A stretch of DNA of 64,000 nt from positions 62,001 to 126,000 of the forward strand of contig CAYMEV010000001.1 of NCBI GenBank assembly GCA_964389675.1. The letters are read 5' to 3'. This stretch comes from an uncultured Candidatus Sumerlaeota bacterium (lineage in GTDB: Bacteria; CAYMEV01). This document shows, in pieces, positions 22,570-46,178 of this stretch. Positions within the stretch are counted from its first letter, which is position 1; each line of letters begins with the position of its first letter. The position numbers and the translations under genes are program-made. The notes below the pieces were generated by a model. The model was not told where the DNA came from and searched no databases. It saw only the letters and a list, made by a program, of their open reading frames with translations.

Positions 22570-25383
22570 TTACTGCCAGTTAAGCCTTATTCTCCACTCC
22601 TGAGACTGCCCGTCAATAAATACCGCCTTAAGGACATAGAAATATATTCCGCCTGGCTTCACATTATCATCCCATTGATATAGATATCCCTGTGAAGGCC
22701 CTCCCTGTCCAGGAATCAGGCTGGAATTAAGCTTAACAGGGGCATATGATACAAAGGGGCTTACCTTCTTGCCTACTATCCTGTAGAGATTATAACCGAG
22801 CAGGTTGACTTCAGATAATGTATGCCATTCAATATCCACAATACCCCCGGAACCCAGAGCGCTAAAATAATCCAGCTGAACTTCATTGGGCAGGGTCTCA
22901 GCCTCAAAGAAGAACTCAATATTAAGAATGTCAGAGGCTGAATAAAAGTAGGACATCGAAGATCCAGACCAGTCAAGAGGATCCCCATCATAGGAGTCTG
23001 AATAGGCATATACAGTCCTTATGTCTGCGGAGGCTGTCCAGTAGCATTTTCCGTATTGAGATGTCCAGGCATTATTGTTAAAGGACAGATCAAGCATTAT
23101 GTTATCCTGCCCATTATATTCAAAGGGAGTGTCGAAACAGAAGCTGTTTATCCCGGTGGCAGATATTGTTTCATTATTCTGATATACTACAGTCCAGCCG
23201 GTATTTTCAAAACTGGCATTGCTGTTATAGTTATCCTTTGATGTGTGCTTAAGCCTGATAGTCCAGTTATCGAGCTGTCTGCCAGGCAGGCTTGTGACAT
23301 TTATCGACAGCCCCTTCAGTGTCTGCGGCTGATCCCCCATTTCAGAGGCAGCATAAATAATCTGTGTCCTGTTATCATGATAATAGGTGTATAGGGGAGC
23401 TTTATCCAGGATCACGGTGCCATCACCAATATGAATCCCGCCCATTGTTTTGAAGGAAAGGCAGTCTGTATTTGCTGTATTGCCTGCAATATCCATTGCA
23501 TAAATACTGAAATAATAGCTTGTATCCCCTTCCAGGCCGTTTATTTGCCCGCTGTGATCAGTACAGAAGCTGTCCTCAATCAATGTATACATATTAAGGT
23601 CATCACAGGATAATCCGTAATATATATATGATATTGATTCCTCATTTGTCTGGAATGTAAATCTTGCACTGCTTCCAGTTATTTCAGTTATAACAGGATC
23701 GGACACAGCAGGCCCTGTACAGTCTATAAGGGCTTCAGCAGTCTTGTATTCAGAAGATCCGCCTCCTGTGTCCTCGTCAAAATACGATACAGTAAGGATA
23801 TTATTATGGTTTACTTCATAATCAGTTCCAAGCAGTACACTTCCCTCAAAAAATCCGGGCATGGATGCAGGATATAGATCAGTATTAATTCCGGCGGTAT
23901 CCTGATCATGCTTTACATTCACAGAGATATACTCCTGGCCGGCCAGATCAGTGTCGATTACCTGTATATTCACCTCCGAGCTGCAGCTGTAAATATCGCT
24001 GTCAAGCAGGACCATTCCGTCAGAAGTACTGCTTATTATGCCTGCAAGATGCGCGATCGATGCAATAGATGCTCTTGCAAAATCCCTGAAATAGTCAAGG
24101 TTCAGATACATCAGCCTGTCATTCACGGTATGGTAGTAGGGGTTAAAATCCCCGTCATCCTCTTCAATGCCCAGGATCGCAGAATACCCGTAATCCCAGA
24201 ATGATGCGTGATCACTGTATGTAAGACCGTTGGATACTATCTCCGGTACCAGGTTCAGGCTGTAGATATCTATTATATCTGCCATAGTATCTGCAAGTAC
24301 CATGGTGGAGGGTATCTGGCTTTCTTTTGCATGAATCCTGATAACAGGATCCCCGGTTGAATCCCATGCTATCATATCAAGATTAATAACACCTTCTATA
24401 TCCATTCCTGAATTATAAGCATCCTGGGCATAATATCCGCTCCCGATCAGCCCCTGTTCCTCTCCGGTCCAGAGAGCATATATGATTGAATAATCAAAAA
24501 GGTAATCAGAGAAAAGCTCCGCAGCAAGCATAACAGCTACAGACCCGCTTGCATTGTCATCAGCACCGGGGCTTGTTGCACCCGATGGCATGCTGTCAAT
24601 GTGGGCACATATTATATAGTATTTATCAGGATAGAGGGACCCTTCCTGTTTTGCGATTACATTTCTCTGTCCGGGTCCTGAAAAATAATGGTACTCCGCA
24701 TCCAGCCCAAGGCTGGAAAAGAACTCATATGCATACTGGGTAGCCTTTTGTATCCCTTCGGTATAATTGGAATTTCTGCTGGTAATAGTATAATCAGACC
24801 CTCCTATGCTTACGGGCCATTCCCCGCTAAGGCCGCCGCAGTAGTTATAGACTGCATCATTGTCAACTGAGCTTATCAGGTCATTTACAACAGGATCAAA
24901 CTCAACAGTTCTCTCACTGCAGTATTCCGAAGGAATGCTTACAGGTTTTTGAACAAGGAATATTTTGGCTATCATTATCCCTGTTTCAGGGAGCTTTTCA
25001 GCTTCCTGAGCAGTTGAAACAATAATATGATCATCATGGTCTGAAAATATTATATCATAATCCCTCAGAACTGATGCCCATCCATCCGACCTGGATACAT
25101 TGAGAATATAATATTCCTTATTTTCTATATTACTGTCAATGATCTCAAATTCAATCCCTTTATTCCTTAACACGGTGCATTGTTCTGCATTTATGCCAAT
25201 TACAGCATAATTATTTATATAATCAAAAACAGCAATAGAGCTTTTTTCAATCAGCTCCAGGTACTTTAATTCAATTACCGCCATATCGTTATGGATGCAG
25301 TTTTCAGCATTAATTGAATAATTCAGGCATGAAAATACCATTAGAAGCATTATAGCGGATAACAATATTTTTTTAATTTTCAT
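22570..25383 (-). CDS. Protease A: secreted M28 peptidase + linker L1 + FN3 + Y-domain + tail T1
   Basis: Signal peptide; CAHIDS, GADDNASG, GEEQGL, NLDM, SDH, YYHT (M28 Zn ligands); DGMVLLDSDIYSCS; APLYTYYHDNRTQ; VQLDYF tail. Confidence 0.92.
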   Translation of the reverse strand: MKIKKILLSAIMLLMVFSCLNYSINAENCIHNDMAVIELKYLELIEKSSIAVFDYINNYAVIGINAEQCTVLRNKGIEFEIIDSNIENKEYYILNVSRSDGWASVLRDYDIIFSDHDDHIIVSTAQEAEKLPETGIMIAKIFLVQKPVSIPSEYCSERTVEFDPVVNDLISSVDNDAVYNYCGGLSGEWPVSIGGSDYTITSRNSNYTEGIQKATQYAYEFFSSLGLDAEYHYFSGPGQRNVIAKQEGSLYPDKYYIICAHIDSMPSGATSPGADDNASGSVAVMLAAELFSDYLFDYSIIYALWTGEEQGLIGSGYYAQDAYNSGMDIEGVINLDMIAWDSTGDPVIRIHAKESQIPSTMVLADTMADIIDIYSLNLVPEIVSNGLTYSDHASFWDYGYSAILGIEEDDGDFNPYYHTVNDRLMYLNLDYFRDFARASIASIAHLAGIISSTSDGMVLLDSDIYSCSSEVNIQVIDTDLAGQEYISVNVKHDQDTAGINTDLYPASMPGFFEGSVLLGTDYEVNHNNILTVSYFDEDTGGGSSEYKTAEALIDCTGPAVSDPVITEITGSSARFTFQTNEESISYIYYGLSCDDLNMYTLIEDSFCTDHSGQINGLEGDTSYYFSIYAMDIAGNTANTDCLSFKTMGGIHIGDGTVILDKAPLYTYYHDNRTQIIYAASEMGDQPQTLKGLSINVTSLPGRQLDNWTIRLKHTSKDNYNSNASFENTGWTVVYQNNETISATGINSFCFDTPFEYNGQDNIMLDLSFNNNAWTSQYGKCYWTASADIRTVYAYSDSYDGDPLDWSGSSMSYFYSASDILNIEFFFEAETLPNEVQLDYFSALGSGGIVDIEWHTLSEVNLLGYNLYRIVGKKVSPFVSYAPVKLNSSLIPGQGGPSQGYLYQWDDNVKPGGIYFYVLKAVFIDGQSQEWRIRLNWQ

Positions 25384-25590: not shown

Positions 25591-27520
25591 CTACAGGCCA
25601 ACCACATAAAATGATATACCCTCATAGGTCCAGTTTGGAAGCTGAATAACAGTATCCCTTTCTGNNNNNNNNNNNNNNNNNNNNNNNNNNNNNNNNNNNN
25701 NNNNNNNNNNNNNNNNNNNNNNNNNNNNNNNNNNNNNNNNNNNNNNNNNNNNNNNNNNNNNNNNATTCGCTTATCGTATAGAGATGGCCTCCCCTGACAT
25801 GGTTGAAAAAACGGTAGACAGGAGTTGTTCCCTCAGCCTGAGCAGTAAATACATAGAATTTTACACCCTCGTAATTATAGTGAGGCAGTTCCATGACATC
25901 ATCCCTCTCAGCTTCACTGATTGTATAGAAATGAATACCTGTACGGGTATTGAAAAAGCGGTAGACAGCTGTTGTGTCAGGCACTTCCAGATCATACACA
26001 TTAAATACAATCCCCTCATAGTCCCATTGAGGCAGGTTTTCCTCTATATAATCCCTTTCTGATTCGCTTATCGTATAGAGATGGCCTCCCCTGACATGGT
26101 TGAAAAAACGGTAGACGGGCACAGGTACATACTGGGGCGAAGTAGATTCCATATAGACATTACCCATAAAGGTGCTTGTATTCCAGTCAGTACCTACCAC
26201 AACTCCGCTTACTGTTTTATCATAATAGCCTTCAGCTGTGAAGTTAACCGTATATGTCCCCGGAAGGAGCATCTTATGAAAAAGCCCGCTTTCCGGATCG
26301 CTTTCAAATTCCCAGTTCAGGCCTGTTATTGTGTACTGCGCGCTTACAGGCTGATGTGTTACAGAATCAAGCACATAACCCTGGACCCCCCTTCTCAGTG
26401 CGCCTGCATAATAAAGCATGGAATATTTATTGTCCTGCCAGAGCTGCGGGAGGGTATTCGAAGGCGGGGCAAAAGAATCTGAAAGTTCAATGGTAACCTG
26501 TGTATTGCTGTGATAATAGGTTGAATAATCCTGCATCCCCCCGTGCACTATATACCAGTCTGCACCATTCGTAATCCCATTGTCAAAATAATAGGAATTA
26601 TACATGGGGTCGTTAAAGCTTGAATACCTAAGGGAAAGCTGGACGAGCAGGTCATTTTCAGGATGGTTGGCATAGGTCGTATCCCAGGGATAGTTTACGA
26701 CAAGGGCGCCAGTATGGAAATTTGCTGAGAGGACTCCCCTTCTGTCATGATAAAACTGCATCAGTGCAGCTGTCTCCACCTGCTTTCCTGAGGGTGTATC
26801 TTCAGGGTCTGTTACGAAATCAGGGAAATTCCTGTTGAGGTCATAACCGTTTGCATTTTCCCTTGAGCTGTCTACAAATCCATCAGGGTTCATTACCGGC
26901 ATGACATATATGTCAAGGTCATCAAGAAGGTTTGTAGCATAATCATCCGTGCCATAATTATATACCAGGTAATTGATGAATTCCATGCACATCTCTGTTC
27001 CGACAGGCTCATTGCCGTGCATGGTGGATATATAATGGAATTCAGGCTTGACAGGATCAAACTGCACATTGCTGGTTATCCTGATAAAATAAAGCGGCCT
27101 GCCTTCCACGCTGTTACCTATATTGATAAGCTGTGCAAGAGACGGATAGGTCTGAACAACAGATTGCAGTTCATTAACAATTTGAGTGAATGTCCTGTAT
27201 GCCAGCCTTTCTTTTCTGTATGAGGGATCTTTATATAGTTCAGCAGTAGTAGGTATATCAATATAATCAAGCCCGAGAGATTCGAAGAACATAATGTGTT
27301 CTTTCTCTGCATAGCATGAGAAAGCCTTTTCAGCAGGTATGAATCTGTCAATGATAAGGTTTGTTCCTGTAACCGCTTTCAGCTCAGCCGGTGTCTGGTA
27401 TTCAACCCTGAGATAACGGGAATCCCCTATATATCCATTATCATAGCTATTATTACCGAATATCGAGCCTGAAAATAACATAATAGCTATGCTTATTAAT
27501 ATGAAAAGCCTGAATTTCAT
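25591..27520 (-). CDS. Protease B: secreted M14 (carboxypeptidase D/N/E-like) + regulatory beta-sandwich + tail T3 (three VYRFFN..HLYT repeats, DUF5648-like); spans the N gap
   Basis: MHGNE, NPDG, DLNRNFPD, SANFHTGALVVNYPWD, GGMQD, TIELS. Removing the 100 N gives an in-frame end ...SERDTVIQLPNWTYEGISFYVVGL*, with TAG at 25591-25593. Confidence 0.9.
25665..25764. other. 100-N assembly gap inside protease B repeats
   Basis: Run of exactly 100 N. Confidence 0.99.
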
Positions 27521-27586
27521 CTATAACTCCTCTTATTATTTATTAACCTGTAAAATTAATAATATGCCTGTTTTAATTTTTGTAAA

Positions 27587-27611
27587 GAGGCAGCAAGATC
27601 TTTACTGCCTC
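27587..27611 (-). terminator. Hairpin, probable intrinsic terminator after protease C
   Basis: GAGGCAG...CTGCCTC inverted repeat 33 bp past the stop; short T tract; related to the 34610 hairpin. Confidence 0.6.
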
Positions 27612-27644
27612 AATTATATTTGCTCTTTCCGATAATTCGGCATA

Positions 27645-30600
27645 TTAGTTCCATACAAGCCGGACACGCCATGTTTCCGTTTCCGAGCCTGCGTTTATTG
27701 CTTCAAGGATGTAAAAATAACCTCTGCCATTAACCACCATATCGCTGTAGTAATATACATGCTCCTGTGATGGCCCCCCCTGGCCTGCAATAAGTTCAGA
27801 ATTGAGCTTTACCGGGATATACGATATAAAGGGGCTTTCTTTTAATGCCCTTTGCCTGTAGACATTAAAACCAAGGTTATTCACCTCTGAGAGTGTTTTC
27901 CATTCAATATCCACCTGGTTTCCAGTACCCTGGGCTGTGAGGTAATCAAGCAGGACACCATCAGGCGGAGGCGTCTCAGATTCAATCCCTAGCTTTATAT
28001 TAATTATGCTGTTGGCTGAATAGACTGTGGGAGCATTCCCTGAAGACCAGTCAAGGGGATCGCCGTTATAAGAGTCTGTATATGCATATATTGTTCTTTT
28101 GTTTGAGGTCGATGTCCAGTAGCATTTGCCATATTCATAGACCCATGAGGAATTATTAAATGATATATCAAGCATCAGATTATCAGTTCCATTATATTCA
28201 AAAGCCTCAGCAAGATCAAAATCAATCCATCCAGTCTGGCTTATATTCTGATTTGCCTGATATACAACTGTCCATCCAGTATTTTCAAATACTGCTGATG
28301 TCTCATAATCCTCCTTTGATGTATGCTTCATGCGTATCGTAAAGCTGTTCATTACAGAACCGGGAAGATCAGTAACATTAATTCCTATTGTATTGATGGT
28401 AAAAGGGACATTTCCCAGATCTGAAGTCTGGTATATTACCTGTGTGCGGTTGTCGTGGTAATATGTATAAAATGGAGCATAATTTATCATAGAGGTTCCG
28501 TCACCCACTATAAATTCATTTAAGGTTGTAAAGCTATAGCATGAGCTCAGGCTTGTATTGCCCGATACATCCGTTGCTTCCACCTTGTAATAATATGTTG
28601 TGTTCGGCAGAAGGCTGTGGATTGTACCCTCATGCTCCAGAACATAGCTCGTGCTTATATCAGCTGAATTGATAAGGTCCATGCACGAAGGCCCCCAGAA
28701 AACCTTGGAGATCGCTGGTTCCCCTGTCTGAAAGGCTATATCTGCAAAATTGCCTCCCAGTGTCTGGATCTCCGTTCCTGTTATTGCCGGCCCCTGGCAG
28801 TCTATGGATGCATTTGCTGTTTTTGTCTGCGATGTCCCGTTGCCAATATTAACATCGTAATATGACACGGTCAGGCTATCGCCGTCAGCTGTAGAAATAT
28901 CACTGCCTAAAATTACAGAACCTTCAAACAGGCCATCTACTTCAGTTTCAGCAAGAAAGATATTTATACCTGTCGGGTCGGAGCTTGTAAATACATTTAC
29001 CATCTGTGTACCCTGGCCTTCAAGGCCTGCATCAATTAAAGCTATAACTGCAGTATCGCTGCAGGAATAAACATCTTTATTCAGTGAGACTATGCCGTCC
29101 TGTGTTGCCCCGGCCATTATAGTTGACTGATATACGGTTGTATTATAGCCTGTAACTGTTATATAAAGCTCATCTGTAGGCATTATAGGGTTTTCAAAGC
29201 TTAAAGAGGCAACACCCATAAAATTTGTATAGCCGGAGGCGTATATAGCTGGATTATTCTGTGCAAGGATACATACAAGAGCCCCTTCAAATGAAGAGCC
29301 GTCTGCCTGCACGCCAACATTGACAGAGGTCGACCCTGAAGGTATCAGGGCAGGATGGTTTACTGTCAGTATAGCAGGATTAGCAGTCCTGACTGTTAGC
29401 GAAGGATCGCCAAAAAGATTATACCATTCGAAATTATCCTCTGTGGATGAATTCCATCCGTCTTCCGCGACCAGATACATCTGTCCTGCCAGGCAGCTTC
29501 CGCCGAAGGAATAGACCGGATCCTCAAAATGGTGCTTTGCAATACCTGTTGCCATGATGGCGGGAGGATCCCAGCTGACGCTTACGGAACCCCCGTAATA
29601 GCCGACAGCTCCCTTTGGGGCTTCTGGTGTCCCTGCCCACATCCATGCTTCTCCGAAACACTCAGATATATCATCAAACTGGCCGTTCATACATGCCACA
29701 TCTATGAGTACAGGGAGTTTGAAACCATTGGAAAGCGCATGTACCTGTGTATTGCTGAAAGTAGTATTGACGCTCCCCCATGATGTTCCGCTTCCGTGTC
29801 CTATATAGGTAGCCCATGTCCTTCCGTCGTTTATGGCAGCACTGATGTTTGCTGCCGTTGCATTGCCGTCCCCCTGAAAGAAATAATCATGGTAGGTGTA
29901 TGTACCATTAAGCAAATATGTGGCAATACCGTTAATATAGTCCTCATCTGACGGGTTTGAGCCCTCATTGCTCGCAATGCCGAAAGCCTTGCTGTAGAAT
30001 TCTCCAGCAGTTCCTGTAAAGGGATTCTGTTCGTAATTAACTATCTTGGATACCTGTATGTCAACATGCCCTGTGTTTTTGGCAAGAATCCTGCCAATGA
30101 GTATATCAGGGTAGTTATCACCATCCATTAATGTATAGGGATAATCTGAAGCTGCACTCCCGTATGCCGTCGATCTGTAGTTAGGAGGTATACCGGTGGT
30201 ATGGCCTACAAAAAGCACATAAGAAGGTTTTGGTACATAGGTATCATATGCATTATCAATTGCGTTCTGTATTGCTGTAGTAGTGCTTCCGACACTGCTC
30301 ATAAGCAGCTTGTAAACCTTGATGCCCTTGCTGTTCTTCCAGTCTATGAAGGGCTGTATTGATGATTCAAGTGCATCCTCGACAAAAAGAAGCATGGATT
30401 CTGCTTCAACCCGGACACCTCTGCTATTAGTATTATAGTTCAGGACAGTTCCTTCATAAAGGGCATCAAATGTCCTGGATACTGAACCATCCTTAAACAT
30501 GCGGCTTTCAGAGCCTGATTTAATATCAACAGCAACTGTGATCCTCTTATGTACATCAAGCCTTCTTTCTGCAGGATTATACTGGAAAGGGTAGATCCCG

Positions 30601-31133
30601 AGCCTTCCTACATAAATGTCTCGTAATGTCCCGGTATCACCCAGAGTAATGATACTTCCTGGATATGTTTCACTGCTCCTGTAGAATTCGCTGTCAGCAA
30701 AGAACGGATACCTGAATCCGGGGTTTGACCTGTTCGGCATCTTCTGGGTCGGATATAACAGGACATTCTCATAGCTGACTGTTTCTTTGTCAATTATGCG
30801 GTACCTGAGATCCGAATCAAATGGAAACTGCAGGAGCTTCCCGAAATGGGGAAGCTCTGCTTTTCCTATATCTGTCATGCTGACAGAGTCAGGCATGGAA
30901 AGCCTTGTATATTCAATCCCGCTTTCATCCTTTGTATCAGCATAAAAGCCAGGGATAGATATCTCTAATATCAGAATGTCATCTTTGGCCTCGATAATAT
31001 TGACAGAAGGATTGCTCCCCTCTGAATCATTTTCGAGACTTACCCAGCCTTCCTGAGGCATATTGCCTGCTGTAAGGATTGTGAAGAAGGCTGTGATGAA
31101 GATGACAACCAGAAATAACTGAAATCTCTTCAT
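27645..31133 (-). CDS. Protease C: secreted C25 gingipain-like (Rgp-type) + Ig + L1 + FN3 + Y-domain + tail T1
   Basis: Propeptide GKAELP, PFQYNP; SDYPY, IGRI, GIASNEG, catalytic YIGHG and DVAC, LFGDP. Confidence 0.93.
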   Translation of the reverse strand: MKRFQLFLVVIFITAFFTILTAGNMPQEGWVSLENDSEGSNPSVNIIEAKDDILILEISIPGFYADTKDESGIEYTRLSMPDSVSMTDIGKAELPHFGKLLQFPFDSDLRYRIIDKETVSYENVLLYPTQKMPNRSNPGFRYPFFADSEFYRSSETYPGSIITLGDTGTLRDIYVGRLGIYPFQYNPAERRLDVHKRITVAVDIKSGSESRMFKDGSVSRTFDALYEGTVLNYNTNSRGVRVEAESMLLFVEDALESSIQPFIDWKNSKGIKVYKLLMSSVGSTTTAIQNAIDNAYDTYVPKPSYVLFVGHTTGIPPNYRSTAYGSAASDYPYTLMDGDNYPDILIGRILAKNTGHVDIQVSKIVNYEQNPFTGTAGEFYSKAFGIASNEGSNPSDEDYINGIATYLLNGTYTYHDYFFQGDGNATAANISAAINDGRTWATYIGHGSGTSWGSVNTTFSNTQVHALSNGFKLPVLIDVACMNGQFDDISECFGEAWMWAGTPEAPKGAVGYYGGSVSVSWDPPAIMATGIAKHHFEDPVYSFGGSCLAGQMYLVAEDGWNSSTEDNFEWYNLFGDPSLTVRTANPAILTVNHPALIPSGSTSVNVGVQADGSSFEGALVCILAQNNPAIYASGYTNFMGVASLSFENPIMPTDELYITVTGYNTTVYQSTIMAGATQDGIVSLNKDVYSCSDTAVIALIDAGLEGQGTQMVNVFTSSDPTGINIFLAETEVDGLFEGSVILGSDISTADGDSLTVSYYDVNIGNGTSQTKTANASIDCQGPAITGTEIQTLGGNFADIAFQTGEPAISKVFWGPSCMDLINSADISTSYVLEHEGTIHSLLPNTTYYYKVEATDVSGNTSLSSCYSFTTLNEFIVGDGTSMINYAPFYTYYHDNRTQVIYQTSDLGNVPFTINTIGINVTDLPGSVMNSFTIRMKHTSKEDYETSAVFENTGWTVVYQANQNISQTGWIDFDLAEAFEYNGTDNLMLDISFNNSSWVYEYGKCYWTSTSNKRTIYAYTDSYNGDPLDWSSGNAPTVYSANSIINIKLGIESETPPPDGVLLDYLTAQGTGNQVDIEWKTLSEVNNLGFNVYRQRALKESPFISYIPVKLNSELIAGQGGPSQEHVYYYSDMVVNGRGYFYILEAINAGSETETWRVRLVWN

Positions 31134-34548: not shown

Positions 34549-34576
34549 TAAAGTCTCCTTGCTTTATTATGGTCAG

Positions 34577-34604
34577 ATTATATACTTAATTATCTTGTTT
34601 TCAA
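34577..34604 (-). promoter_or_regulatory. Putative sigma70 promoter for D-C
   Basis: Minus strand TTGAAA-N16-TATAAT (context AAGTATATAAT), then RBS AAGGAG. Confidence 0.6.
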
Positions 34605-34609
34605 AATGA

Positions 34610-34642
34610 AAAGAGGGCAGCAAAATATGTGCTGCCCTCTTT
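34610..34642 (-). terminator. Intrinsic terminator after protease E
   Basis: 13-bp stem AAAGAGGGCAGCA/TGCTGCCCTCTTT with T tracts. Confidence 0.85.
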
Positions 34643-34658
34643 ATGTTTTTATCAGCTA

Positions 34659-37600: not shown

Positions 37601-38897
37601 CAGCGCTGATGTTTGCTGCTGTTGCATTATAATCTCCCTGGAAGAAATAATCATGGTATGTGTATGTACCATTAAGCAGGTAGTTTGCAATGCCGTTAAT
37701 ATAATCCTCATCTGACGGGCTTGAACCCTCATTGCTTGCAATACCGAAAGCCTTGCTGTAAAATTCTGCCGCTGTCCCTGTAAATGGGTTCTGTTCATAG
37801 TTTACTATCTTTGATACCTGGACATCAACCTGTGTTGTATTGTTTGCAAGTATCCTTCCAATAAGCAGGTCCGGGTAATTATCACCGTCCATCAGTGTAT
37901 ATGGGTAATCGGACGCAGCATTTCCATCTGAAGTTGACCTGTAGTTTGGCGGTATTCCCGACACATGGCCTACAAAAAGGACATAAGTCGGTGTCGGTGT
38001 ATATGTGGCGTATGCATTATCAATAGCGTTCTGTATTGCTGTAGTAGTGCTTCCGACACTGCTCATAAGCAGCTTGTAAACCTTGATGCCCTTGCTGTTC
38101 TTCCAGTCTATGAAGGGCTGTATTGATGATTCAAGTGCATCCTCGACAAAAAGAAGCATGGATTCTGCTTCAACCCGGACACCTCTGCTATTAGTATTAT
38201 AGTTCAGGACAGTTCCTTCATAAAGGGCATCAAATGTCCTGGATACTGAACCATCCTTAAACATGCGGCTTTCAGAGCCTGATTTAATATCAACAGCAAC
38301 TGTGATCCTCTTATGTACATCAAGCCTTCTTTCTGCAGGATTATACTGGAAAGGGTAGATCCCGAGCCTTCCTACATAAATGTCTCGTAATGTCCCGGTA
38401 TCACCCAGAGTAATGATACTTCCTGGATATGTTTCACTGCTCCTGTAGAATTCGCTGTCAGCAAAGAACGGATACCTGAATCCGGGGTTTGACCTGTTCG
38501 GCATCTTCTGGGTCGGATATAACAGGACATTCTCATAGCTGACTGTTTCTTTGTCAATTATGCGGTACCTGAGATCCGAATCAAATGGAAACTGCAGGAG
38601 CTTCCCGAAATGGGGAAGCTCTGCTTTTCCTATATCTGTCATGCTGACAGAGTCAGGCATGGAAAGCCTTGTATATTCAATCCCGCTTTCATCCTTTGTA
38701 TCAGCATAAAAGCCAGGGATAGATATCTCTAATATCAGAATGTCATCTTTGGCCTCGATAATATTGACAGAAGGATTGCTCCCCTCTGAATCATTTTCGA
38801 GACTTACCCAGCCTTCCTGAGGCATATTGCCTGCTGTAAGGATTGTGAAGAAGGCTGTGATGAAGATGACAACCAGAAATAACTGAAATCTCTTCAT
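34659..38897 (-). CDS. Protease E: secreted C25 (Rgp-type) + Ig + L1 + FN3 + Y-domain + tail T2
   Basis: First about 295 aa identical to C; YIGHG, DVAC; GDITGDG, GDFTGDG, GDIAGDS propeller repeats. Confidence 0.93.
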   Translation of the reverse strand: MKRFQLFLVVIFITAFFTILTAGNMPQEGWVSLENDSEGSNPSVNIIEAKDDILILEISIPGFYADTKDESGIEYTRLSMPDSVSMTDIGKAELPHFGKLLQFPFDSDLRYRIIDKETVSYENVLLYPTQKMPNRSNPGFRYPFFADSEFYRSSETYPGSIITLGDTGTLRDIYVGRLGIYPFQYNPAERRLDVHKRITVAVDIKSGSESRMFKDGSVSRTFDALYEGTVLNYNTNSRGVRVEAESMLLFVEDALESSIQPFIDWKNSKGIKVYKLLMSSVGSTTTAIQNAIDNAYATYTPTPTYVLFVGHVSGIPPNYRSTSDGNAASDYPYTLMDGDNYPDLLIGRILANNTTQVDVQVSKIVNYEQNPFTGTAAEFYSKAFGIASNEGSSPSDEDYINGIANYLLNGTYTYHDYFFQGDYNATAANISAAINNGRTYATYIGHGSGTSWGSTNDTFSNTQVHALSNGFKLLALIDVACLNGQFDDISECFGEAWMWAGTASVPKGAVAYYGGSVSISWHPPAIMATGIAKHHFEDPVYSFGGSCLAGQMYLVAQEGWGSDVEDNFEWYNIFGDPSLMLRTASPETISVTHPTMIASGSTSAEVNVSVSKAPFEQALVCIYASNNDDIYASAFTDASGDATLTFDTGITPTDELHITVTGYNTTVYESTILAGSTSDGIISFDSDAYSCSATADITLLDGDLEGQGTHIVEVSSTTYPSGIDVVLTETATAGMFEGSVVLGSDIAVSNGDTLTVTYYDANTGKRASEYKTDTASIDCSGPVISGINVVALGGNYAEIGFTTSEPATSVLLWGSSCSSMPYSADASTSYNTSHEGTIDGLTTSTKYYYKVQATDEYGNTTTSACLNFTTVSELIIGNGTVEVSPAPIYTYYHDNRTQVIYTADDLGNAPLTISSLAINVSSLPSLPMTNWTIRMKHTTKDDYESSAVFENTGWTVVYQADTTISTTGWNEFVFSANFEYDGTQNLMVDFSFNNTAWESPGGKVYWTGTSTAQAIYGYTDSGYGDPLDWSSSTHPTVYTSDNYVNLKLGLVAEENPETEPALVSFNADSPAVYSWEYSFSKPIEFGMKGSTWVPVMNGAYAEKLVAGDITGDGNNEVVGYFPGFGLYYYNLTEWVSIIDSTILDFDLVEMPGSTQKQIYASFAGQGVYKWNYAKGIEYENNVLNSKDWTAIIATPAYLILAIDVDKNDTEDVVMSFDSIAGTYVYNCTTSEFNKILTISLTDATAGDFTGDGYKELIVTFEGYGIYVMSYSKGLDSTPLKLATNKEGLDDISRIDTDNVWYKGRDYSWMRLLVVASDTDSKLATGDIAGDSMDELVAVIQGRTYYYNPSAATWTKLADIAFERVGAGYFTGGANEDLIVSCSQLDRIFLFISETQSFEKILEGMYSSGITGY

Positions 38898-40371
38898 AAT
38901 AAAATCTCCTTATATCTTCTTAAAATAATTATTGCTCGTCAAACAGTATGACAGCCATGTCTGAAGCATATGCTCCCATCATGATCCTTTCAAAGCTTGC
39001 TGTATCACTCTTGTAAAGATAGATGAATTCGCCTGCCTTGCTTGAAAGAATTATGTCATCAACCTGGTCCTGACTGAATTTGCCGAGTATCATCCTGTCG
39101 AATGAAGCTGCTACAAGGCTGTTCCATGTCTGGCCGGACGGCTGATAATAATATGTCCTTCCTGCTATTACTGTAAATATCTCATCTATTGAATCAGATG
39201 TTATATTGCCTGTGGCTATCTCTGTATCTGCATCAGGAGCGACTATGAGTATCCTCATCCACTGGAATGCCTTATTACCGCCCTTTGATGTCCAGACAAA
39301 GCTCTCCTTTATGTCATTCTCAAGGTCAATACATGGAATGCTCTTTGCCTGGCCGGCTTTTGCCGTATAGCTCATAAGATAGATCCCAAGGCCCTCAAAT
39401 GCTGAAACAAGCTCTGCATATCCATCTCCGTCAATATCAGCCTTTGCAAGATTGACAGGTGATACTGTCACTGCCTTTGTAAACAGGTCTTCTGCAAACT
39501 GATAGATATAACCGCCGTCAAGGCCGTTAAAAGCTACAAAAAGCTCATCTACACCGTTCTTGAATATGTCAACGGCCAGTATTATATCTGCAAGCTGTGT
39601 GTTTATCCTCTCCCATGTGCTCTTTGCCTGGTCAAACTGCCAGGTTGACCTGTCCTTTGAATATATCCACTTGTAAATGCCAAATCCATCCAGTGAGGCA
39701 ATAAGGGTCTTTACACCTGTGCCGTCAATGTCTGCAAGGCAGAAATCATTAATTACACCTGTAGTTATCTGGCTGAAGCTTTCAAAATCATAAAGGTAAA
39801 GCCCCTGTCCGGCAAAATAGGCTATTGCCTCGGCAATACCGTCGCCTGTTATGTCGCCTGTCACTACCTTGTCTGCATAATTGCCGTTCATTACAATCGT
39901 CCATGTGGAGCCCTTCTCTTCAAATACAAAGGGCTTTGATTCGCTGTATTCCCACTGGTAAATGGCAGGAAGGTCAGGATTAAGGCTTACTATTGCCCTG
40001 TCAAGGTTCATTGGAGGATTGTCTGCAACCAGGCCAAGCTTCAGGTTTATGAAATTATCGCTTGCATATACCGTCGGATGTGTTGATGATGACCAGTCAA
40101 GCGGGTCACCGTATCCTGAGTCTGTATATCCGTATATTGACTGCGCTGTTGAAGTTCCGGTCCAGTAGACCTTTCCGCCGGGGGATGCCCATTCATCATT
40201 GTTGAACGAGAAGTCAACCATAAGGTTCTGGCTTCCGTCATATTCAAAAGGTGCTGCAAATACAAATTCATTCCAGCCTGTTGCGCTTATGGTGGTATTT
40301 GCCTGGTAAACGACTGTCCAGCCCGTGTTCTCAAATACGGCTGATGATTCATAATCAGCCTTTGTTGTATG
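38026..40371. repeat. 2,346-bp direct repeat, copy 2 (3' part of F + spacer + 5' part of E)
   Basis: See copy 1 at 30262-32607. Confidence 0.92.
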
Positions 40372-43179
40372 CTTCATCCTTATAGTCCAGTTGGTCATTG
40401 TAAGAGATGGGACAGTGCTTACATTAATGGAGAGTGAATTAATGGAAAGAGGTGAATTCCCCAGGTCATCGGCTGTATATATGACCTGTGTCCTGTTGTC
40501 CTCATAATATGTGTATAAAGGTGCATTGGTAACCTCTGTGGTGCCATCCCCTATCTCAAGGATGTTTAATGTTGAAAAGTTATAGCATCCTGTAGTTACA
40601 CTGTTATCTGATGCATCCTCTGCTGTTACCTTGAAATAGTATGTGGTATTTGTATCAAGGCCTGTAATTGTGCCGCTGTGGCTTGTAACATAAGATGTGC
40701 TGATGTCTGCTGTATTTGGAAGACTTGAACATGAAAGGCCATAGCTTACAGAAGATACTGCACTTTCATCTGTACTGAATGATATCTGTGCTGAATTTCC
40801 GGAGATATTTGTGATCGTAACACCTGAAACTACCGGTGCAGCGCAGTCTATTGCTGCAGTATCTGTCTTGTAGGCTGCCTTTTTGCCCTTGCTTCCTGTA
40901 TTCTCATCATAATAGCTTACAGTAAGTGTATCACCGTCGGATACAGCAATATCTGTCCCCAGTATTACAGAACCCTCAAAAACGCCGTCAGTAGCAGTTT
41001 CATAAAGGGTAACCGTTATCCCTGAAGGATTTGTAGTTGATGTTACATCCACATTCTGGGTCCCTTCACCTGAAAGGTCGGAATCAGAAAGTGTGATTAC
41101 GGCTGTTGATGTACAGTTGTATAAATCATCATCAAAATTTACTATTCCATCAGATGAAGAACCTATTAGAATTGTTTTTTCATAATTAATAATATTCGGG
41201 TGAGTTACTACAAGCAGGAAATCCCCTGATGAGCTAAGAGGGGAATCCAGCGTAACTGTGGCGCTTCCGGTAGCATCGGTCCTTGCTGCTCCTCTGATTC
41301 CAAGTGAGGGGTTGTAGGCACTTACTATGGCATCTTCAACAGGGCCTTTTGAATCGCTTACAGTTGCCTCAAAGCTTGCTGTACCTACAGGAAGCAGGTC
41401 AGGCGATGTCACAGAAGGATCAACAGGTGATGCAGATGGCAAAAATGATGTACCGTCACCTAAAAGGTTATACATATCCATGTAGTATTGTGACTGCCCG
41501 CCACCGGAATAATAGTTCCAGAGAAGAACCTTTGAATAATTCGTGTTCTGGTCAAGCACATGCATTCCATCGAAGAATGCATCCCATGAACGCCTTGCAA
41601 GATAGTCATCCTCATCCCAGTATGATGAGTTGGATGCGCCCCAGTAAGCAAAAGCTGCATTGTCTGCCCTGATAAAGGCCTCAGCTATACATGGTTCATA
41701 GCTTGAGCTGTTAAATTGAGTACTCAGACAGCAGTTTCCTATTGCAAAAAAATACATGTACTGATTTGTAAGGGAAGTAACATTTGAGACAGATATTGAC
41801 GTACTGCTTCCGAAAGCCCAGGATGTCTGGCTGCAGTGAGCAGAATAGTTTGCCGCAACCTTGCCTGCATTCATGGAAGCAATTACATCCGATGCAGTAT
41901 GGCCTAATGAATAGGCATAAAGCTTGTCATAATCCCAGCCATTGGGGTCAAGATGTGTGGAGGCGACATAATCAAATGTGCCTTCCCCTACATCGGAGTA
42001 GTTTGAATCATAACCTGCTGCAAGCGCAACATCCGTCATCCAGGTAAGGTCAGAATTCTGATACTGCTCATAATAAAGCAGTTTCCCCAGATATGTGCTC
42101 AGGTCTGAAGTTGTCCTTAAGGATATTCTGCTTATTCCTGCATCAGGAAAATAATCAGAACCGGCAAGGTAAACATAGTATACATCGGCTGCTGTGCCTG
42201 AATCCTCGCCTGTATATGTTGGGATCGTATTTGAATCGCCAACAAGTATTATGCTTGAAGGCGGGACATCCCATGTATCGTATGCATCCTGGATATACGC
42301 ATGAATACCTGCTGTGGTAGAACCGTTCGTAATATCTGACTGCTGTGTCAGAGTAACGATATATCCCTTCTTTTCTTTCCATTCAACAAATGAGGAAAGG
42401 CCTGAATATAGCGCATCTGCTGTAATTATCAGGATACCTTCATCAGAGAATCCTTTTGCATTGACAGACTGCTTCAGCTCTTCACTGCCCAATGAGGCAA
42501 GGTCATATACCCTGCTGAAGCTTGAGTCATACCTGTTTATCTTTTGAGCTGTCTTTGCCATATCTGAATTCTTAAGCTCGATCTTAATATCGATCTCTGT
42601 ATATACCATAAGCCTTTCTGTTGAAGGATTGTATTTCACTGGGAATATGGTAACAGGCAGAAGCCTTTTCTCTCTTGCCCTTATCTCATCATTTACCTTA
42701 ATGAACTCCTCAGGCAGAAAAGATTTGCTCTTATAGACCTCTTTATTGATTATAAATTCTGGTGTCTCAGCTTCCGGGTCTTTTGGCACAGGAAACTGAA
42801 CAGGATACAGGAGCTCTGCTCCAGTTTCAACCAGAATATCAATCTCCACTGCCTTGCCAAGAGTATATGATATCTTGTAATCTGCAGATTCAGGAATCTG
42901 TATCAGCTTATAAAAAACCGGGAGTTTGGGATCCCCATACTCTCCAAATACCGATCCATCCTCGAAATAAAGATCGGAATATACTACACCCTCCTTTATG
43001 TGGGTCTTGTAGAACATTCCCTTTACATTTGTCTTCAGCCTTATCTCTTCAGGCGAATAGGATTCGACGATTACACCTTCCTCCAGCTTGCTGTCAGCTG
43101 AAATGAAACCGTCATAGGAATAACCTGAAAGAGAAAAGCAGAGTATTACTAAGATAACGACTAAGTGAACCTTTTTCAT
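38929..43179 (-). CDS. Protease F: secreted C25 (Kgp-type) + Ig + L1 + FN3 + Y-domain + tail T2
   Basis: Start ATG 43179 after CAGGAGG; GDPKLP, PVKYNP; ANYSAHC, AIGNCC, SYWDED, NLLGDG; tail identical to D. Confidence 0.93.
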   Translation of the reverse strand: MKKVHLVVILVILCFSLSGYSYDGFISADSKLEEGVIVESYSPEEIRLKTNVKGMFYKTHIKEGVVYSDLYFEDGSVFGEYGDPKLPVFYKLIQIPESADYKISYTLGKAVEIDILVETGAELLYPVQFPVPKDPEAETPEFIINKEVYKSKSFLPEEFIKVNDEIRAREKRLLPVTIFPVKYNPSTERLMVYTEIDIKIELKNSDMAKTAQKINRYDSSFSRVYDLASLGSEELKQSVNAKGFSDEGILIITADALYSGLSSFVEWKEKKGYIVTLTQQSDITNGSTTAGIHAYIQDAYDTWDVPPSSIILVGDSNTIPTYTGEDSGTAADVYYVYLAGSDYFPDAGISRISLRTTSDLSTYLGKLLYYEQYQNSDLTWMTDVALAAGYDSNYSDVGEGTFDYVASTHLDPNGWDYDKLYAYSLGHTASDVIASMNAGKVAANYSAHCSQTSWAFGSSTSISVSNVTSLTNQYMYFFAIGNCCLSTQFNSSSYEPCIAEAFIRADNAAFAYWGASNSSYWDEDDYLARRSWDAFFDGMHVLDQNTNYSKVLLWNYYSGGGQSQYYMDMYNLLGDGTSFLPSASPVDPSVTSPDLLPVGTASFEATVSDSKGPVEDAIVSAYNPSLGIRGAARTDATGSATVTLDSPLSSSGDFLLVVTHPNIINYEKTILIGSSSDGIVNFDDDLYNCTSTAVITLSDSDLSGEGTQNVDVTSTTNPSGITVTLYETATDGVFEGSVILGTDIAVSDGDTLTVSYYDENTGSKGKKAAYKTDTAAIDCAAPVVSGVTITNISGNSAQISFSTDESAVSSVSYGLSCSSLPNTADISTSYVTSHSGTITGLDTNTTYYFKVTAEDASDNSVTTGCYNFSTLNILEIGDGTTEVTNAPLYTYYEDNRTQVIYTADDLGNSPLSINSLSINVSTVPSLTMTNWTIRMKHTTKADYESSAVFENTGWTVVYQANTTISATGWNEFVFAAPFEYDGSQNLMVDFSFNNDEWASPGGKVYWTGTSTAQSIYGYTDSGYGDPLDWSSSTHPTVYASDNFINLKLGLVADNPPMNLDRAIVSLNPDLPAIYQWEYSESKPFVFEEKGSTWTIVMNGNYADKVVTGDITGDGIAEAIAYFAGQGLYLYDFESFSQITTGVINDFCLADIDGTGVKTLIASLDGFGIYKWIYSKDRSTWQFDQAKSTWERINTQLADIILAVDIFKNGVDELFVAFNGLDGGYIYQFAEDLFTKAVTVSPVNLAKADIDGDGYAELVSAFEGLGIYLMSYTAKAGQAKSIPCIDLENDIKESFVWTSKGGNKAFQWMRILIVAPDADTEIATGNITSDSIDEIFTVIAGRTYYYQPSGQTWNSLVAASFDRMILGKFSQDQVDDIILSSKAGEFIYLYKSDTASFERIMMGAYASDMAVILFDEQ

Positions 43180-43396
43180 TGATTCCTCCTGTTTTTTGTT
43201 TTTTTTCATTTATATATGCATAAATAAAAATATTATTCTTCTGGATTTTTGTTTCATATATGAAGTTTTTTCGATAAAGAAGGAAAGGTTTTCATAATAA
43301 TGGAGAGAAATAAAAAATTGTGTGTAAATAACATCCTTAATCAACAAACTGCACTATATAACTTTATTCCAATAATATGGACCTTTGACATTAATG

Positions 43397-43712: not shown

Positions 43713-46178
43713 TCACAGGCTTATAACATAAAAACAGACTCCCTCATATGTCCAGTTTGGAAGCTCCATTACGGTATCTCTTTCATGCTCGCTTATGGTG
43801 TAAAGATGTCCGCCTCTTGCATGGTTGAAAAACCGGTAAACAGGCGTAGTACCTGTAATCTGGGTATTAAAGACATAAAACTTAACACCCTCGTAATTCC
43901 ACTGAGGTAGCTGCATAATAGCGTCTCTTTCACTTTCATCAATGGTATAAAGGTGAATTCCTGTATTTGTATTGAAGAAGCGGTACACAGCACGGCTATC
44001 CTGAACCTGGCCGGCATATACATTAAACTTAATACCCTCATATGTCCAGCTGGGAAGCTGCATGACTGCATCCCTCTCAGCTTCGCTAATGGTATAAAGA
44101 TGGCCTCCCCTGACATGGTTGAAGAAACGGTAGACAGGAACCGGGACATCTCCGGATCCGCTTATGTTTATGGTTTTTTCATAATTTATAATATTCGGAT
44201 GCGTAACAACAAGAAGGAATGTGCCGGCAGTATTCAGGGCCGAATCGAGAATTACCGTTGCATTTCCTGATGAATCAGTCCTGGCTGCACCCCTGACCCC
44301 CAGGCTTGGGTTATATGCACTCACTATTGCGCCTTCAACAGGGGATCCAGATGCAGTCACATTTACCTGGAAACTTGTTGTGCCAAGGCTTACAGAATCT
44401 GGAGAATCAACTGAGGGGTTTACAGGGCTTTTTGAGGGAACAAATGATGTACCGTCACCGAACACATTATACATATCCATATAGTACCTGGATTGCCCTC
44501 CCCCTGAATAGTGGTTCCAGAGCAGGACCTTTGAATAATTTGTATTCTGGTCAATTGCATGCATTCCATCAAAAAATGCATCCCATGAACGCCTTGCAAG
44601 GTAGTCATCCTCATCCCAGTATGATGAGTTGGATGCTCCCCAGTATGCAAAAGCAGCATTGTCTGCCCTGATGAATGCCTCACCGATGCATTCGTCGTAT
44701 GTGTTGAACTGAGCACTTAAACAGCAGTTCCCGACAGCAAAGAAATACATGTTCTGATTTGTAAGTGAATTGACATGGCTGTTATAGATATCCCCTCCAT
44801 TGCCGAAAGCCCATGATGTCTGGTTGCAGTGGGCAGAATAGTTTGCTACAACCTTTCCGGCATTCATGGAGGCAATGACCTCTGATGCTGTTGAATCCAG
44901 TGCATCTGCATACAGCTTGTCATAATCCCACCCATTGGGGTCAAGATGTGTAGATGCGACATAGTTGAAGGTCCCCTCCCCAATATAGGAATAATACCAG
45001 TCATATCCGGCAGCGAGTGTAGCATCCGTCATCCAGGAAAGATCGGAGTTCTGGTACTGCTCGTAATAAAGCAGTTTGCCCAGATAAGTGCTGAGCTGGC
45101 CTGTTGTCCTGACAGAGATCCTGCTTATTCCTGCATCAGGAAAATAATCAGAGCCATCAAGGTATACATAGTAAACATCAGCAGCTGTGCCTGAATCCCC
45201 TCCTGTATATGTGGGAATGGTATTTGAATCACCGACAAGTATTACGCTTGATGGAGGGATATCCCATGTATCGTAGGCATTCTGTATATAGTTGTGTATT
45301 CCTGTTGTGGAACTTCCGTTAGTTATATCAGACTGCCTTGTAAGAGTAACCCTGTAGCCCTTTTTCTCCTTCCATTCTACAAAGGTTGAAAGCCCGCTGT
45401 AAAGCGTATCTGCAGTAATTATAAGGATGCCTTCATCAGAAAAACCCTTTGCATTAACCGAATTTTTAAGCTCGCTGCTTCCAACAGATACAAGGTCATA
45501 CATAATGCTGAAGCTTGAATCATATCGGTTGATCCTTTGTGCAGTCTTTGCCATATCAGCATTTTTAAGCTCAATTCTTATATCAATCTCTGTATAAACC
45601 ATCAGCCTTTCAGTAGAAGGATTGTACTTTACAGGGAATATTGTTAAAGGCAGCAGCCTTTTCCCCCTGGCCCTTATTTCATCATTAACCTTGATGAATT
45701 CTTCCGGCAGAAAAGATCTGCTTTTGTATACCTTTTTATTGATTATGAATTCCGGAATTTTTGCTTCCGGGTCCTTTGGCACAGGAAGCTGAACAGGGTA
45801 TATAAATCCTGCCCCGGTCTCTGCCAGCATGTCCACTTCCACAGCCTTCCCAAGGGTAAAAGATACCCTGTAATCAGCAGATTCAGGGATCTGTACAAGC
45901 TTGTAAAAGACTGGAAGCTTCGGATCTCCATAATCGCCATACACAGACCCATCCTGAAAGTTCAGATCAGAATATACCCTGTCCTTTTTAATATGGTTTT
46001 TATAGAAAATCCCGTTTACATTAGCCTTGAGAATTATCTCTTCCGGCGAATAGCCAATAATTATCACTCCTTCTTCAAGGTCGGTATCAGCTGAAATAAA
46101 ACCGTCATATGAATAGCCTGAAATAGAAAAAAACATCATAATCAGTATAATACCCAAACCCAAATGAAACTTTTTCAT
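43713..46178 (-). CDS. Protease G: secreted C25 (Kgp-type) + Ig + tail T3 (three DUF5648-like repeats)
   Basis: Start ATG 46178 after CAGGAGG; close paralog of the F head (YSAHC, GNCC, SYWDED); VYRFFNHVRGGHLYTISE repeats as in B. Confidence 0.93.
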   Translation of the reverse strand: MKKFHLGLGIILIMMFFSISGYSYDGFISADTDLEEGVIIIGYSPEEIILKANVNGIFYKNHIKKDRVYSDLNFQDGSVYGDYGDPKLPVFYKLVQIPESADYRVSFTLGKAVEVDMLAETGAGFIYPVQLPVPKDPEAKIPEFIINKKVYKSRSFLPEEFIKVNDEIRARGKRLLPLTIFPVKYNPSTERLMVYTEIDIRIELKNADMAKTAQRINRYDSSFSIMYDLVSVGSSELKNSVNAKGFSDEGILIITADTLYSGLSTFVEWKEKKGYRVTLTRQSDITNGSSTTGIHNYIQNAYDTWDIPPSSVILVGDSNTIPTYTGGDSGTAADVYYVYLDGSDYFPDAGISRISVRTTGQLSTYLGKLLYYEQYQNSDLSWMTDATLAAGYDWYYSYIGEGTFNYVASTHLDPNGWDYDKLYADALDSTASEVIASMNAGKVVANYSAHCNQTSWAFGNGGDIYNSHVNSLTNQNMYFFAVGNCCLSAQFNTYDECIGEAFIRADNAAFAYWGASNSSYWDEDDYLARRSWDAFFDGMHAIDQNTNYSKVLLWNHYSGGGQSRYYMDMYNVFGDGTSFVPSKSPVNPSVDSPDSVSLGTTSFQVNVTASGSPVEGAIVSAYNPSLGVRGAARTDSSGNATVILDSALNTAGTFLLVVTHPNIINYEKTINISGSGDVPVPVYRFFNHVRGGHLYTISEAERDAVMQLPSWTYEGIKFNVYAGQVQDSRAVYRFFNTNTGIHLYTIDESERDAIMQLPQWNYEGVKFYVFNTQITGTTPVYRFFNHARGGHLYTISEHERDTVMELPNWTYEGVCFYVISL

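Follow-up and report, generated by a model that had tools for sequence, protein, structure and literature searches.

A tandem array of predicted exported peptidases with exchangeable C-terminal modules in an uncultured Candidatus Sumerlaeota bacterium

The window analysed here, a stretch of 64,000 nucleotides from the genome of an uncultured Candidatus Sumerlaeota bacterium (assembly GCA_964389675.1, contig CAYMEV010000001.1, positions 62,001 to 126,000), holds an array of peptidase genes, lettered A to H, in which catalytic heads are combined with three alternative C-terminal tails, here called T1, T2 and T3. Seven co-oriented minus-strand open reading frames (ORFs) fill positions 22570–46253 and an eighth runs from 61097 past the end of the window. 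In the reading that we favour, to which we give a probability of roughly 0.7, the array is a cluster of Sec-exported peptidases of a sediment bacterium, whose heads are joined to recombining C-terminal cassettes, the tails being modules of binding or retention. The products would be multidomain enzymes, namely gingipain-type C25 endopeptidases with propeptides, M14 carboxypeptidases and an M28 aminopeptidase. Comparison of the modules shows that cassettes have moved between heads by homologous recombination and gene conversion among tandem paralogues, with a conserved domain of about 180 aa (Y), together with the modules L1 and FN3, as the shared joint for the exchange. In the latest event, sequence of F and E would have overwritten the Y–T2 part of D, the following spacer and the beginning of C. 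The genome to which the window belongs (G000) comprises 3.57 Mb in 58 contigs and is 93.8% complete; in the taxonomy used, the phylum consists of this genome and one other of the same genus (G001, 91% complete), which we refer to as the sister genome.

Heads, linkers and tails of the array genes

Searches against Pfam gave the same heads as those first assigned in an earlier note on this DNA (M28 in A, M14 in B and D, C25 in C, E, F, G and H), and hidden Markov models (HMMs) built from the window's modules recovered exactly all eight of the module orders claimed there. All eight genes lie on the minus strand. Gene A (22570–25383, 937 aa) encodes a signal peptide and an M28 aminopeptidase head (Peptidase_M28, PF04389; E 4.1e-32, 111.9 bits against a cut-off of 21.3), followed by L1 (23686–24036), an FN3-type module (23443–23685), Y (22891–23436) and T1 (22573–22887). 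Gene B (25622–27520, about 632 aa) has an M14 carboxypeptidase head, a CarboxypepD_reg-like domain and T3, which is DUF5648 (25760–26125); a scaffold gap of 100 N at 25665–25764 crosses the 3' end of the gene, so T3 and the stop codon are incomplete. Gene C (27645–31133, 1162 aa) consists of a C25 propeptide, a head of type C25a and an Ig-like C25_C domain ahead of L1 (28764–29117), FN3 (28518–28760), Y (27966–28514) and T1 (27648–27959), and gene D (31165–34548, 1127 aa) of an M14 head, a second linker, L2 (32794–33138), Y (32248–32796) and T2 (31183–32238). Genes E (34659–38897, 1412 aa) and F (38929–43209, 1426 aa) both begin with a C25 propeptide; E continues with a C25a head, L1 (36531–36878), FN3 (36285–36524), Y (35730–36278) and a second subtype of T2 (34668–35723), and F with a C25b head, L1 (40810–41166), FN3 (40564–40809), Y (40012–40563) and T2 (38947–40002). 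Gene G (43713–46178, about 821 aa), the start of which is most likely the ATG at 46178 rather than the TTG at 46253, has a C25 propeptide, a C25b head, an Ig-like domain and a T3 of the DUF5648 family (43719–44144), and is preceded by a promoter-like site found by consensus scan at 46264–46236. Gene H (61097–64000 and beyond, 1018 aa), which starts about 153 nt past position 64000 and so outside the window, joins a C25c head to L2 (61961–62305), Y (61415–61966) and T1 (61103–61411).

The M14 heads of B and D match Peptidase_M14 (PF00246) at E 7e-64 and 4e-63 (216.6 and 214.1 bits), and the five C25 heads match Peptidase_C25 (PF01364) at E 1e-54 to 1e-56 (186–193 bits against a gathering cut-off of 23). 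Propeptide_C25 (PF08126) was found in C, E, F and G (63–84 bits), and Pfam detected no C25 propeptide in H. The T3 tails of B and G match DUF5648 (PF18885) with 141 and 149 bits against a cut-off of 25 (E 1e-41 to 1e-43). Otherwise the Pfam matches were weak, to FG-GAP in the D, E and F tails and to FN3 or Pur_ac_phosph_N in A, C, E and F, and NCBIfam added only a sub-threshold likeness of the C25 heads to PorU models. The genome as a whole has 13 C25 loci with PF01364. When the five C25 heads of the array are aligned, a single His (in an HG context) and two Cys do not vary, and an Ala stands before the first Cys; we take a His/Cys pair to be the catalytic dyad. The HxxE motif is kept in both M14 heads, and because of these kept residues the array enzymes look active. 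Their N-termini resemble Sec signal peptides.

Pairwise BLASTP of the heads gave identities of 77% over 1056 aa for C and E, 80% over 685 aa for F and G, and 70% over 448 aa for B and D. For the tails the corresponding values were 98.7% over 545 aa for D and F, 50% over 486 aa for A and C, 65% over 294 aa for C and H, and 76% over 121 aa for B and G. T2 occurs as two subtypes, that of D and F being identical and that of E 41% identical to it.

Exchange of modules between genes

A direct repeat of 4,767 bp (copy 1 at 28042–32794, copy 2 at 35806–40558; offset 7764, 86% identity) runs through the middle of the array, and both of its ends fall in Y modules: copy 1 spans the head, L1, FN3 and part of the Y of C, a 31-nt spacer and the Y–T2 of D. 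Inside the repeat lies a tract of 2,346 bp in which the two copies are identical (30262–32607 and 38026–40371). It holds most of the Y–T2 of D (shared with F), the spacer and the first 870 nt or so of C (shared with E), and leftward of it the identity drops gradually, from 93% to about 60%. The T2 tails of D and F, 100% identical in this genome, are only 67% identical to each other in the sister genome, and the shared tail is slightly nearer to the sister F tail (69% identity) than to the sister D tail (64%), which together points to a recent gene conversion that would have carried F–E sequence onto D–C. The F–E and D–C spacers, both of 31 nt, lie within the identical tract. Between E and D, consensus scans found a terminator-like 13-bp stem after E (34642–34610, minus strand) and a promoter-like site before D (34604–34577, minus strand), which suggest that F–E and D–C may be two-gene transcription units.

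The identity of the Y modules follows the tail to which they are joined: it is 81–97% among D, E and F, 56–67% among A, C and H, and 53–60% across the two sets, while the heads pair otherwise, C with E and F with G. In a tree of Y modules, E of this genome groups with D and F of the same genome (support 92/96), and D of the sister genome with F of the sister genome (84/78). A tree in which the genes with C25a heads form a clade has a log-likelihood 55.4 lower and is rejected by the approximately unbiased (AU) test (p = 0.0013). The incongruence between module trees for which the earlier note had suggested looking is thus present, Y grouping by tail and by genome and not by head.

The sister genome has an orthologous array in the order F–E–D–B, followed by the flank, and lacks C and A: gene C is absent between D and B, and no gene joining an M28 head to T1 was found anywhere in that genome. 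Sister orthologues of D and H have the same architectures as here at 69% and 66% identity, those of E and F are 75% and 76% identical, and that of B, of 606 aa, ends in one complete T3. The orthologue of H adjoins a run of genes similar in lengths and order to that in the window. Database relatives add the combinations M14–L2–Y–T3 and C25–L1–FN3–Y–T3, so that both linkers with Y occur with all three tails. The proposal that the tails are interchangeable cassettes is borne out by their exchange between heads of the array, by the differences between species and by these further combinations. It is also true of the window, as had been claimed, that no head–tail pair is repeated; as a sign of design, however, this carries no weight, since 248 of the 560 distinct arrangements of the tails (44%) would have no repeat by chance.

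In the sister genome we also observed a C25a–L1–FN3–Y frame that overlaps a second frame ending in T3 (contig C41, L161:7704-12618). Either the gene is frameshifted or the sequence contains an error; the gene would join a C25a head to a T3 tail, a combination absent from G000.

Reality of the gene architectures

The record is a scaffolded metagenome-assembled genome (MAG), and the architectures were compared with contigs made by another assembler from public sequencing runs of three studies (X1, X2 and X3; marine sediment or sediment metagenomes), in which 94%, 51% and 42%, respectively, of the words sampled from a 2.4-kb test stretch were found; two further runs (X4 and X5) contained small shares only, and parts of the stretch without X2 or X3 contigs carry no information either way. 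An X1 contig of 3,451 bp spans 26087–29537, from the head of B through T1, Y, FN3 and L1 of C into the head of C, with 0 differences. A second X1 contig, of 6,202 bp, spans 31226–37427 and runs from the D tail over the junction into the D head and then from the E tail into the E head, and an X2 contig of 1,582 bp spans 35738–37319, from the Y to the head of E. The contigs from the public runs are tangled at 25790–26110, the DUF5648 repeat area beside the gap, which explains the scaffold gap. At the edges of the identical tract the X1 contigs differ from the record: at 32608–32700 they have the letters of F at 11 of 11 positions, and at 30381–30450 there are 12 positions unlike either copy in the record, so the exact ends of the tract are uncertain. 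Since the junctions of C, D and E are bridged, and since the sister genome independently has the orders of D, E, F, B and H, we regard these architectures as genuine.

Two more C25 genes with propeptides stop at contig ends right after the Ig-like C25_C domain (G000:C10:124292-126424 and C50:2960-5035). Repeated tails seem to break the assembly, and the counts of tails given below are accordingly lower bounds.

Two accounts would do away with exchange altogether. The genes are tandem, co-oriented paralogues, as plain whole-gene duplication and divergence would leave them, but such a history without any exchange of modules is scarcely credible: the groupings of heads and of Y conflict and the AU test rejects their congruence (p = 0.0013), E is 77% like C from head to Y (L1 and FN3 included; 1056 aa) yet in its Y 83% and in its T2 41% like F, and homologous tails sit on the unrelated folds of M14, M28 and C25 heads. 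The head–tail pairs might instead be chimeras of short-read contigs joined across repeated modules, an explanation invited by the scaffolded record with its 100-N gap within a repeated module, by a 2.3-kb exact repeat that is difficult for short reads, by the two C25 genes that end at contig ends just past the Ig-like domain, and by the differences of the X1 contigs at both ends of the identical tract. We consider it very unlikely nonetheless, given the bridging of the C, D and E junctions by another assembler's contigs and the D, E, F, B and H architectures of an independently assembled sister genome. Moreover, the D and F tails lie wholly within the repeat, down to their stop codons, so that resolving the repeat in the opposite way would leave every architecture unchanged, and at the edge of the repeat the identity falls gradually, not abruptly.

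Use of the tails across the genome

The search of the genome and its relatives with module HMMs that the earlier note had proposed found the tails on many unrelated exported proteins, and they are not local to the array. G000 has 8,419 ORFs that run from stop to stop and reach 80 aa or more, and 73 of them bear one or more of the modules (T2 in 35, T1 in 22, T3 in 15 and Y in 8), and at least 72 end in T1, T2 or T3; by a crude rule, 55 of the 73 have a signal-peptide-like N-terminus. T1 ends no more than 3 aa from the end of the ORF in 20 of 22 cases, T2 is terminal in nearly all complete ORFs and T3 is C-terminal in 10. The heads joined to T2 include S8, M12, C25, M14, PAD_porph, GHL10, Amidase_2/SpoIID, SH3, beta-helix and MAM, those joined to T1 Kelch, SBBP, beta-helix, MAM, GLUG, C25 and M28, and those joined to T3 M28, C10, C25, M14, Lcl_C, SBBP and BNR. 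Across the genome, related heads are inclined to share a tail: 29 of 48 pairs of nearest heads do so, where 16.7 would be expected (P for 29 or more, 0.004). Among head pairs with at least 60% identity 8 of 12 differ in tail, against about 7.5 by chance. Swapping is thus frequent among recent peptidase paralogues, and there is no sign of a rule against repeated pairs.

Three of the tail-bearing genes outside the array encode a Porphyromonas-type peptidyl-arginine deiminase with T2, a C10 peptidase having an inhibitor-like propeptide with T3, and a second M28 peptidase with T3 (contigs C14, C3 and C2, respectively). We take M14 carboxypeptidase, C10 peptidase and peptidyl-arginine deiminase, all of them tail-bearing here, to be companion enzymes in the exoproteome of Porphyromonas gingivalis, which the G000 exoproteome presumably resembles in its enzyme families.

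No recurrent partner gene, receptor or sortase-like, was found among the 303 ORFs that lie up to 4 kb from the 73 ORFs with modules. Judged from the members scanned, the five largest families of neighbours are kinase/cyclase–STAND–TPR proteins, ABC ATPases, sulfatases, permeases of the FtsX/MacB type and a hybrid sensor kinase, and a member of one smaller family is a PQQ-type propeller protein. Eight paralogous large proteins with kinase/cyclase, STAND (AAA_16) and TPR domains, three of which were scanned with Pfam, are encoded within 4 kb of tail-bearing exoprotein genes, on contigs C8, C13, C15, C19, C30 and C32; they may be regulators of the exoproteome.

T1 and the missing type IX secretion system

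The 22 copies of T1 are 35–62% identical to the copy in C and have 13 invariant columns. A profile search of 1.84 billion representative proteins gave 21,316 proteins at E <= 1e-3 and only 44 at E <= 1e-30; of the 143 re-detected among the top 150 matches, the domain is terminal in 39 and is followed by 70–140 aa in 29. The closest matches in species-representative genomes come from a single genome (55–62% identity), in which the T1-like domain lies no more than 2 aa from the end of the ORF in 8 of 9 cases. The next matches are in MAGs of Fermentibacteria, KSB1, Poribacteria, Calditrichota, Cloacimonadota, Neomarinimicrobiota, Latescibacterota and others, and in these other phyla 70–140 aa lie beyond the domain in 66 of 83 ORFs. 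In 8 of 10 cases tested this stretch fits models of the C-terminal domain (CTD) carried by type IX secretion (T9SS) cargo (Por_Secre_tail and/or FlgD_ig), in some of them below the curated cut-off. By these comparisons T1 is a domain that in other phyla precedes a predicted T9SS CTD and that here is terminal. In a quick tree of 101 columns, the 30 copies of the genus fall on one side of a branch from 85 others (Shimodaira–Hasegawa-like approximate likelihood ratio test, 100), which suggests either one origin of the terminal form followed by its spread, or homogenization within the lineage.

The T9SS itself appears to be missing. The CTD models (TIGR04183 and PF18962) have no match in the eight array proteins and 0 matches in either G000 or G001, while four comparison genomes gave 119, at least 150, 73 and 122; the translocon SprA, present in all four of these, was not found in G000 or G001, nor were PorV, SprA_N and GldM found in G000. 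For PorU the best match in G000 has 162.8 bits against a cut-off of 420. The T1-like matches in the four comparison genomes number 5, 14, 16 and 21, so few beside the CTDs that the T1-like domain would not itself be part of the T9SS signal, and no relation was detected between T1 and 20 T9SS CTDs (hhalign probability 1.8%).

This best match to PorU, the T9SS sortase model, is a PorU-like protein of 937 aa (L172:6290-9103, contig C4), with C25 at residues 580–931 and neither a CTD nor T1, T2 or T3, kept in a genome that has no other T9SS markers; genes for an acyltransferase of lipid A and for an FHA protein adjoin its own.

T2, T3, Y and the export genes

Searched alone, the T2 of D matches FG-GAP_3 with 28.0 bits (cut-off 26.9) and FG-GAP with 23.3 bits (cut-off 22.1), and it holds repeated motifs of the DxxGDG type in about 6–7 units, which fit a lineage-specific FG-GAP-type domain with a putative propeller fold. 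A match to TcdB_toxin_midN was set aside (about 18 bits against a cut-off of 24.8, overlapping the FG-GAP region). T2 gave 27 matches in the sister genome and none in the four T9SS-bearing comparison genomes, and a word-based search returned only 5 proteins, namely D, F, two close relatives (69% and 63% identity), one of the E/F-type architecture and the other of the D architecture, and one weak FG-GAP protein. For T3, a preprint describes DUF5648 as a three-bladed propeller and proposes that it binds glycan or O-antigen (bioRxiv 10.1101/2025.01.06.631476).

Y, a domain of about 180 aa, is widespread and uncatalogued: its 95 matches are mostly exported peptidases (C10, S8, C25, M14, M28, C1, C13 and M6), with some dockerin proteins. 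In Pfam at E <= 10 it gave chance-level matches only, Cleaved_Adhesin not among them, and its profile found nothing below E 0.9 among all PDB chains. The profiles of T1 and T2 likewise gave nothing meaningful against PDB sequences, and in Pfam, NCBIfam and PDB as searched, the terminal form of T1, T2 and Y are all absent. L1 matches PDB chain 8c8k, titled "Cell surface protein", at E 3.8e-8.

The export genes of G000 comprise a type IV pilus locus and a second locus in which T2SSF and T2SSE stand with a PilN-like gene, a secretin of 796 aa and a pseudopilin. The secretin (L187:7668-10058; G000:C5:53667-56054) has N-terminal TPR repeats and a C-terminal match to Cohesin (PF00963, E 9e-8), and the same cohesin match is found in the 797-aa secretin of the sister genome. 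Docking of the array proteins by cohesin and dockerin was considered and rejected, since across the genome cohesin has only 3 matches and dockerin only 2, the latter outside the array; Dockerin_1 (PF00404) is absent from the eight array proteins at E <= 0.01.

Comparison with known systems

The closest parallels are the gingipains RgpA and Kgp and the haemagglutinin HagA of Porphyromonas gingivalis, whose non-catalytic C-terminal regions are common to the genes, recombination and the shuffling of domains keeping these regions alike or rearranging them (PMC13390158); as in the array, long shared non-catalytic C-terminal regions follow C25 heads. The earlier note's claim that the system is undescribed was therefore too broad, although it stands for the terminal form of T1, for T2 and for Y, none of which is catalogued; neither these tails nor the lineage were described in the literature searched. 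The array differs from the gingipains in that their shared regions are made of adhesin domains, whereas Pfam found neither Cleaved_Adhesin nor any other gingipain adhesin domain here, and in that there is no T9SS or T9SS CTD, there are three families of tail and not one, and the tails occur also on many non-peptidases.

A second analogue is the T9SS cargo (PMC11285876, PMC4804311). Just as with the tails here, one small C-terminal domain, the type A CTD, stands at the end of about a hundred unrelated exported proteins in each genome, and in MAGs of Calditrichota, Cloacimonadota, KSB1, Neomarinimicrobiota, Poribacteria, Latescibacterota and Fermentibacteria relatives of T1 stand directly before it. 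For RgpB, contact of the CTD with the preceding domain is reported to matter for secretion (PMC11285876). The T9SS CTD is, however, cleaved by PorU, with anchoring to anionic lipopolysaccharide, and neither cleavage nor lipid attachment can be inferred for the tails. T3 has its own parallel in the pore-forming BSAP toxins of Bacteroidales and in GH70 enzymes, in which C-terminal DUF5648 is swappable and is proposed to recognize O-antigen or glycans (bioRxiv 10.1101/2025.01.06.631476), but here the domain is found on peptidases and on beta-propeller or Lcl_C proteins, and is sometimes N-terminal. Cellulosome kits resemble the array in that many catalytic heads share one non-catalytic docking module and the families evolve by module shuffling; unlike them, the eight array proteins have no dockerin, and no scaffold protein was identified.

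Possible roles of the tails

A surface-polysaccharide cluster lies between G and H (46451–61043), with Glycos_transf_4, glycosyltransferases of families GT1 and GT4, Wzy_C, a Polysacc_synt flippase and acetyltransferases, and may be linked with the tails. The tails themselves are predicted to be non-catalytic modules of binding or retention, T3 as a lectin-like propeller and T2 as a lineage-specific FG-GAP-type propeller, and the earlier suggestion that they serve as addresses or anchors is plausible. Our working hypothesis is that the tails keep endo- and exopeptidases attached to a surface, which would be either the glycans of the cell's own envelope or a particulate substrate, and that the products of digestion would in this way remain near the cell. 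Export would be by Sec and then possibly by the type II secretion system-like machine of the second locus, which is proposed because the lineage is without a T9SS.

Several observations weigh against parts of this hypothesis. T2 is internal in 2 ORFs and T3 is N-terminal, ahead of Lcl_C, in 5, and the modules are thus not strictly C-terminal signals. T1 found nothing in Pfam at E <= 10 and has no profile likeness to the array's FN3 module (hhalign probability 0.7%). With regard to exchange, the F to D direction of the conversion hangs on a modest gap in identity (69% against 64%), part of the identical tract at its left end could be an assembly collapse, and the group rejected by the AU test was named after the identity matrix had been inspected. 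Finally, X1, the source of the long bridging contigs, may be the genome's own sample, and the contigs of X2 and X3 are short.

Two other functions of the tails deserve consideration. In the strong form of what the earlier note inferred, they might be signals for sorting or attachment in an undescribed envelope pathway, one that replaces the T9SS, each class having its own machinery and destination. With such a role would agree the extreme C-terminal position of T1 in 20 of 22 ORFs, its 13 invariant columns and kept last strand, the confinement of T2 to the lineage (sister genome, 27 matches; four T9SS-bearing genomes, none), the number of tail-bearing ORFs (at least 72, beside 73 to 150 or more CTD matches in T9SS genomes) and the retention of a PorU-like C25 protein without a T9SS. 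We nevertheless think the idea unlikely, as no receptor or processing gene recurs beside the tail-bearing genes, T1 has no detectable likeness to T9SS CTDs (1.8%), T1-like matches in T9SS genomes number 5–21 against 73 to 150 or more CTDs, T3 and T2 also take non-terminal positions, and DUF5648 occurs widely among bacteria as a binding domain. It is also interesting to speculate, although we hold this to be doubtful as well, that the whole exoproteome is displayed through T1, T2 and T3 as lectin-like or docking domains, each binding different glycans of the cell's own envelope, so that the same peptidases are posted at different layers or released; the polysaccharide cluster between G and H could then encode one of the bound glycans, and recombination at the Y joint would, if this is true, re-address an enzyme in a single step. 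Of these possibilities, we favour tails that bind or retain exported peptidases and that recombine as cassettes.

In the metagenomes of one estuarine subsurface sediment, gingipain-type C25 genes made up more than 40% of the predicted exported peptidase genes, and zinc carboxypeptidases and M28 were also abundant (PMC6752024). Retention of such enzymes near the cell decides who gains from the breakdown of sediment protein. The lineage offers a natural experiment, in that a peptidase repertoire typical of T9SS-bearing bacteria occurs in a lineage without a T9SS and with three alternative end domains on about 2% of its ORFs. Of particular interest are the presence of three tail classes together, the apparent turning of a pre-CTD domain into a terminal one and the seemingly fresh conversion tract of 2.3 kb, which, with a conserved joint module and tandem paralogues, puts the mechanism of tail swapping on view. 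The array should also be useful for the annotation or assembly of repeat-rich loci of this kind.

Other genes of the window

Two further observations concern the other end of the window. At positions 2–1789 an Aminotran_5 domain is fused to an AIR-synthase-related N-terminal domain in a gene cut by the window end, and at 3747–10716 there is a chemotaxis cluster (CheR, CheW, CheA) that includes a HEAT-repeat protein of 738 aa and an AAA_22 ATPase.

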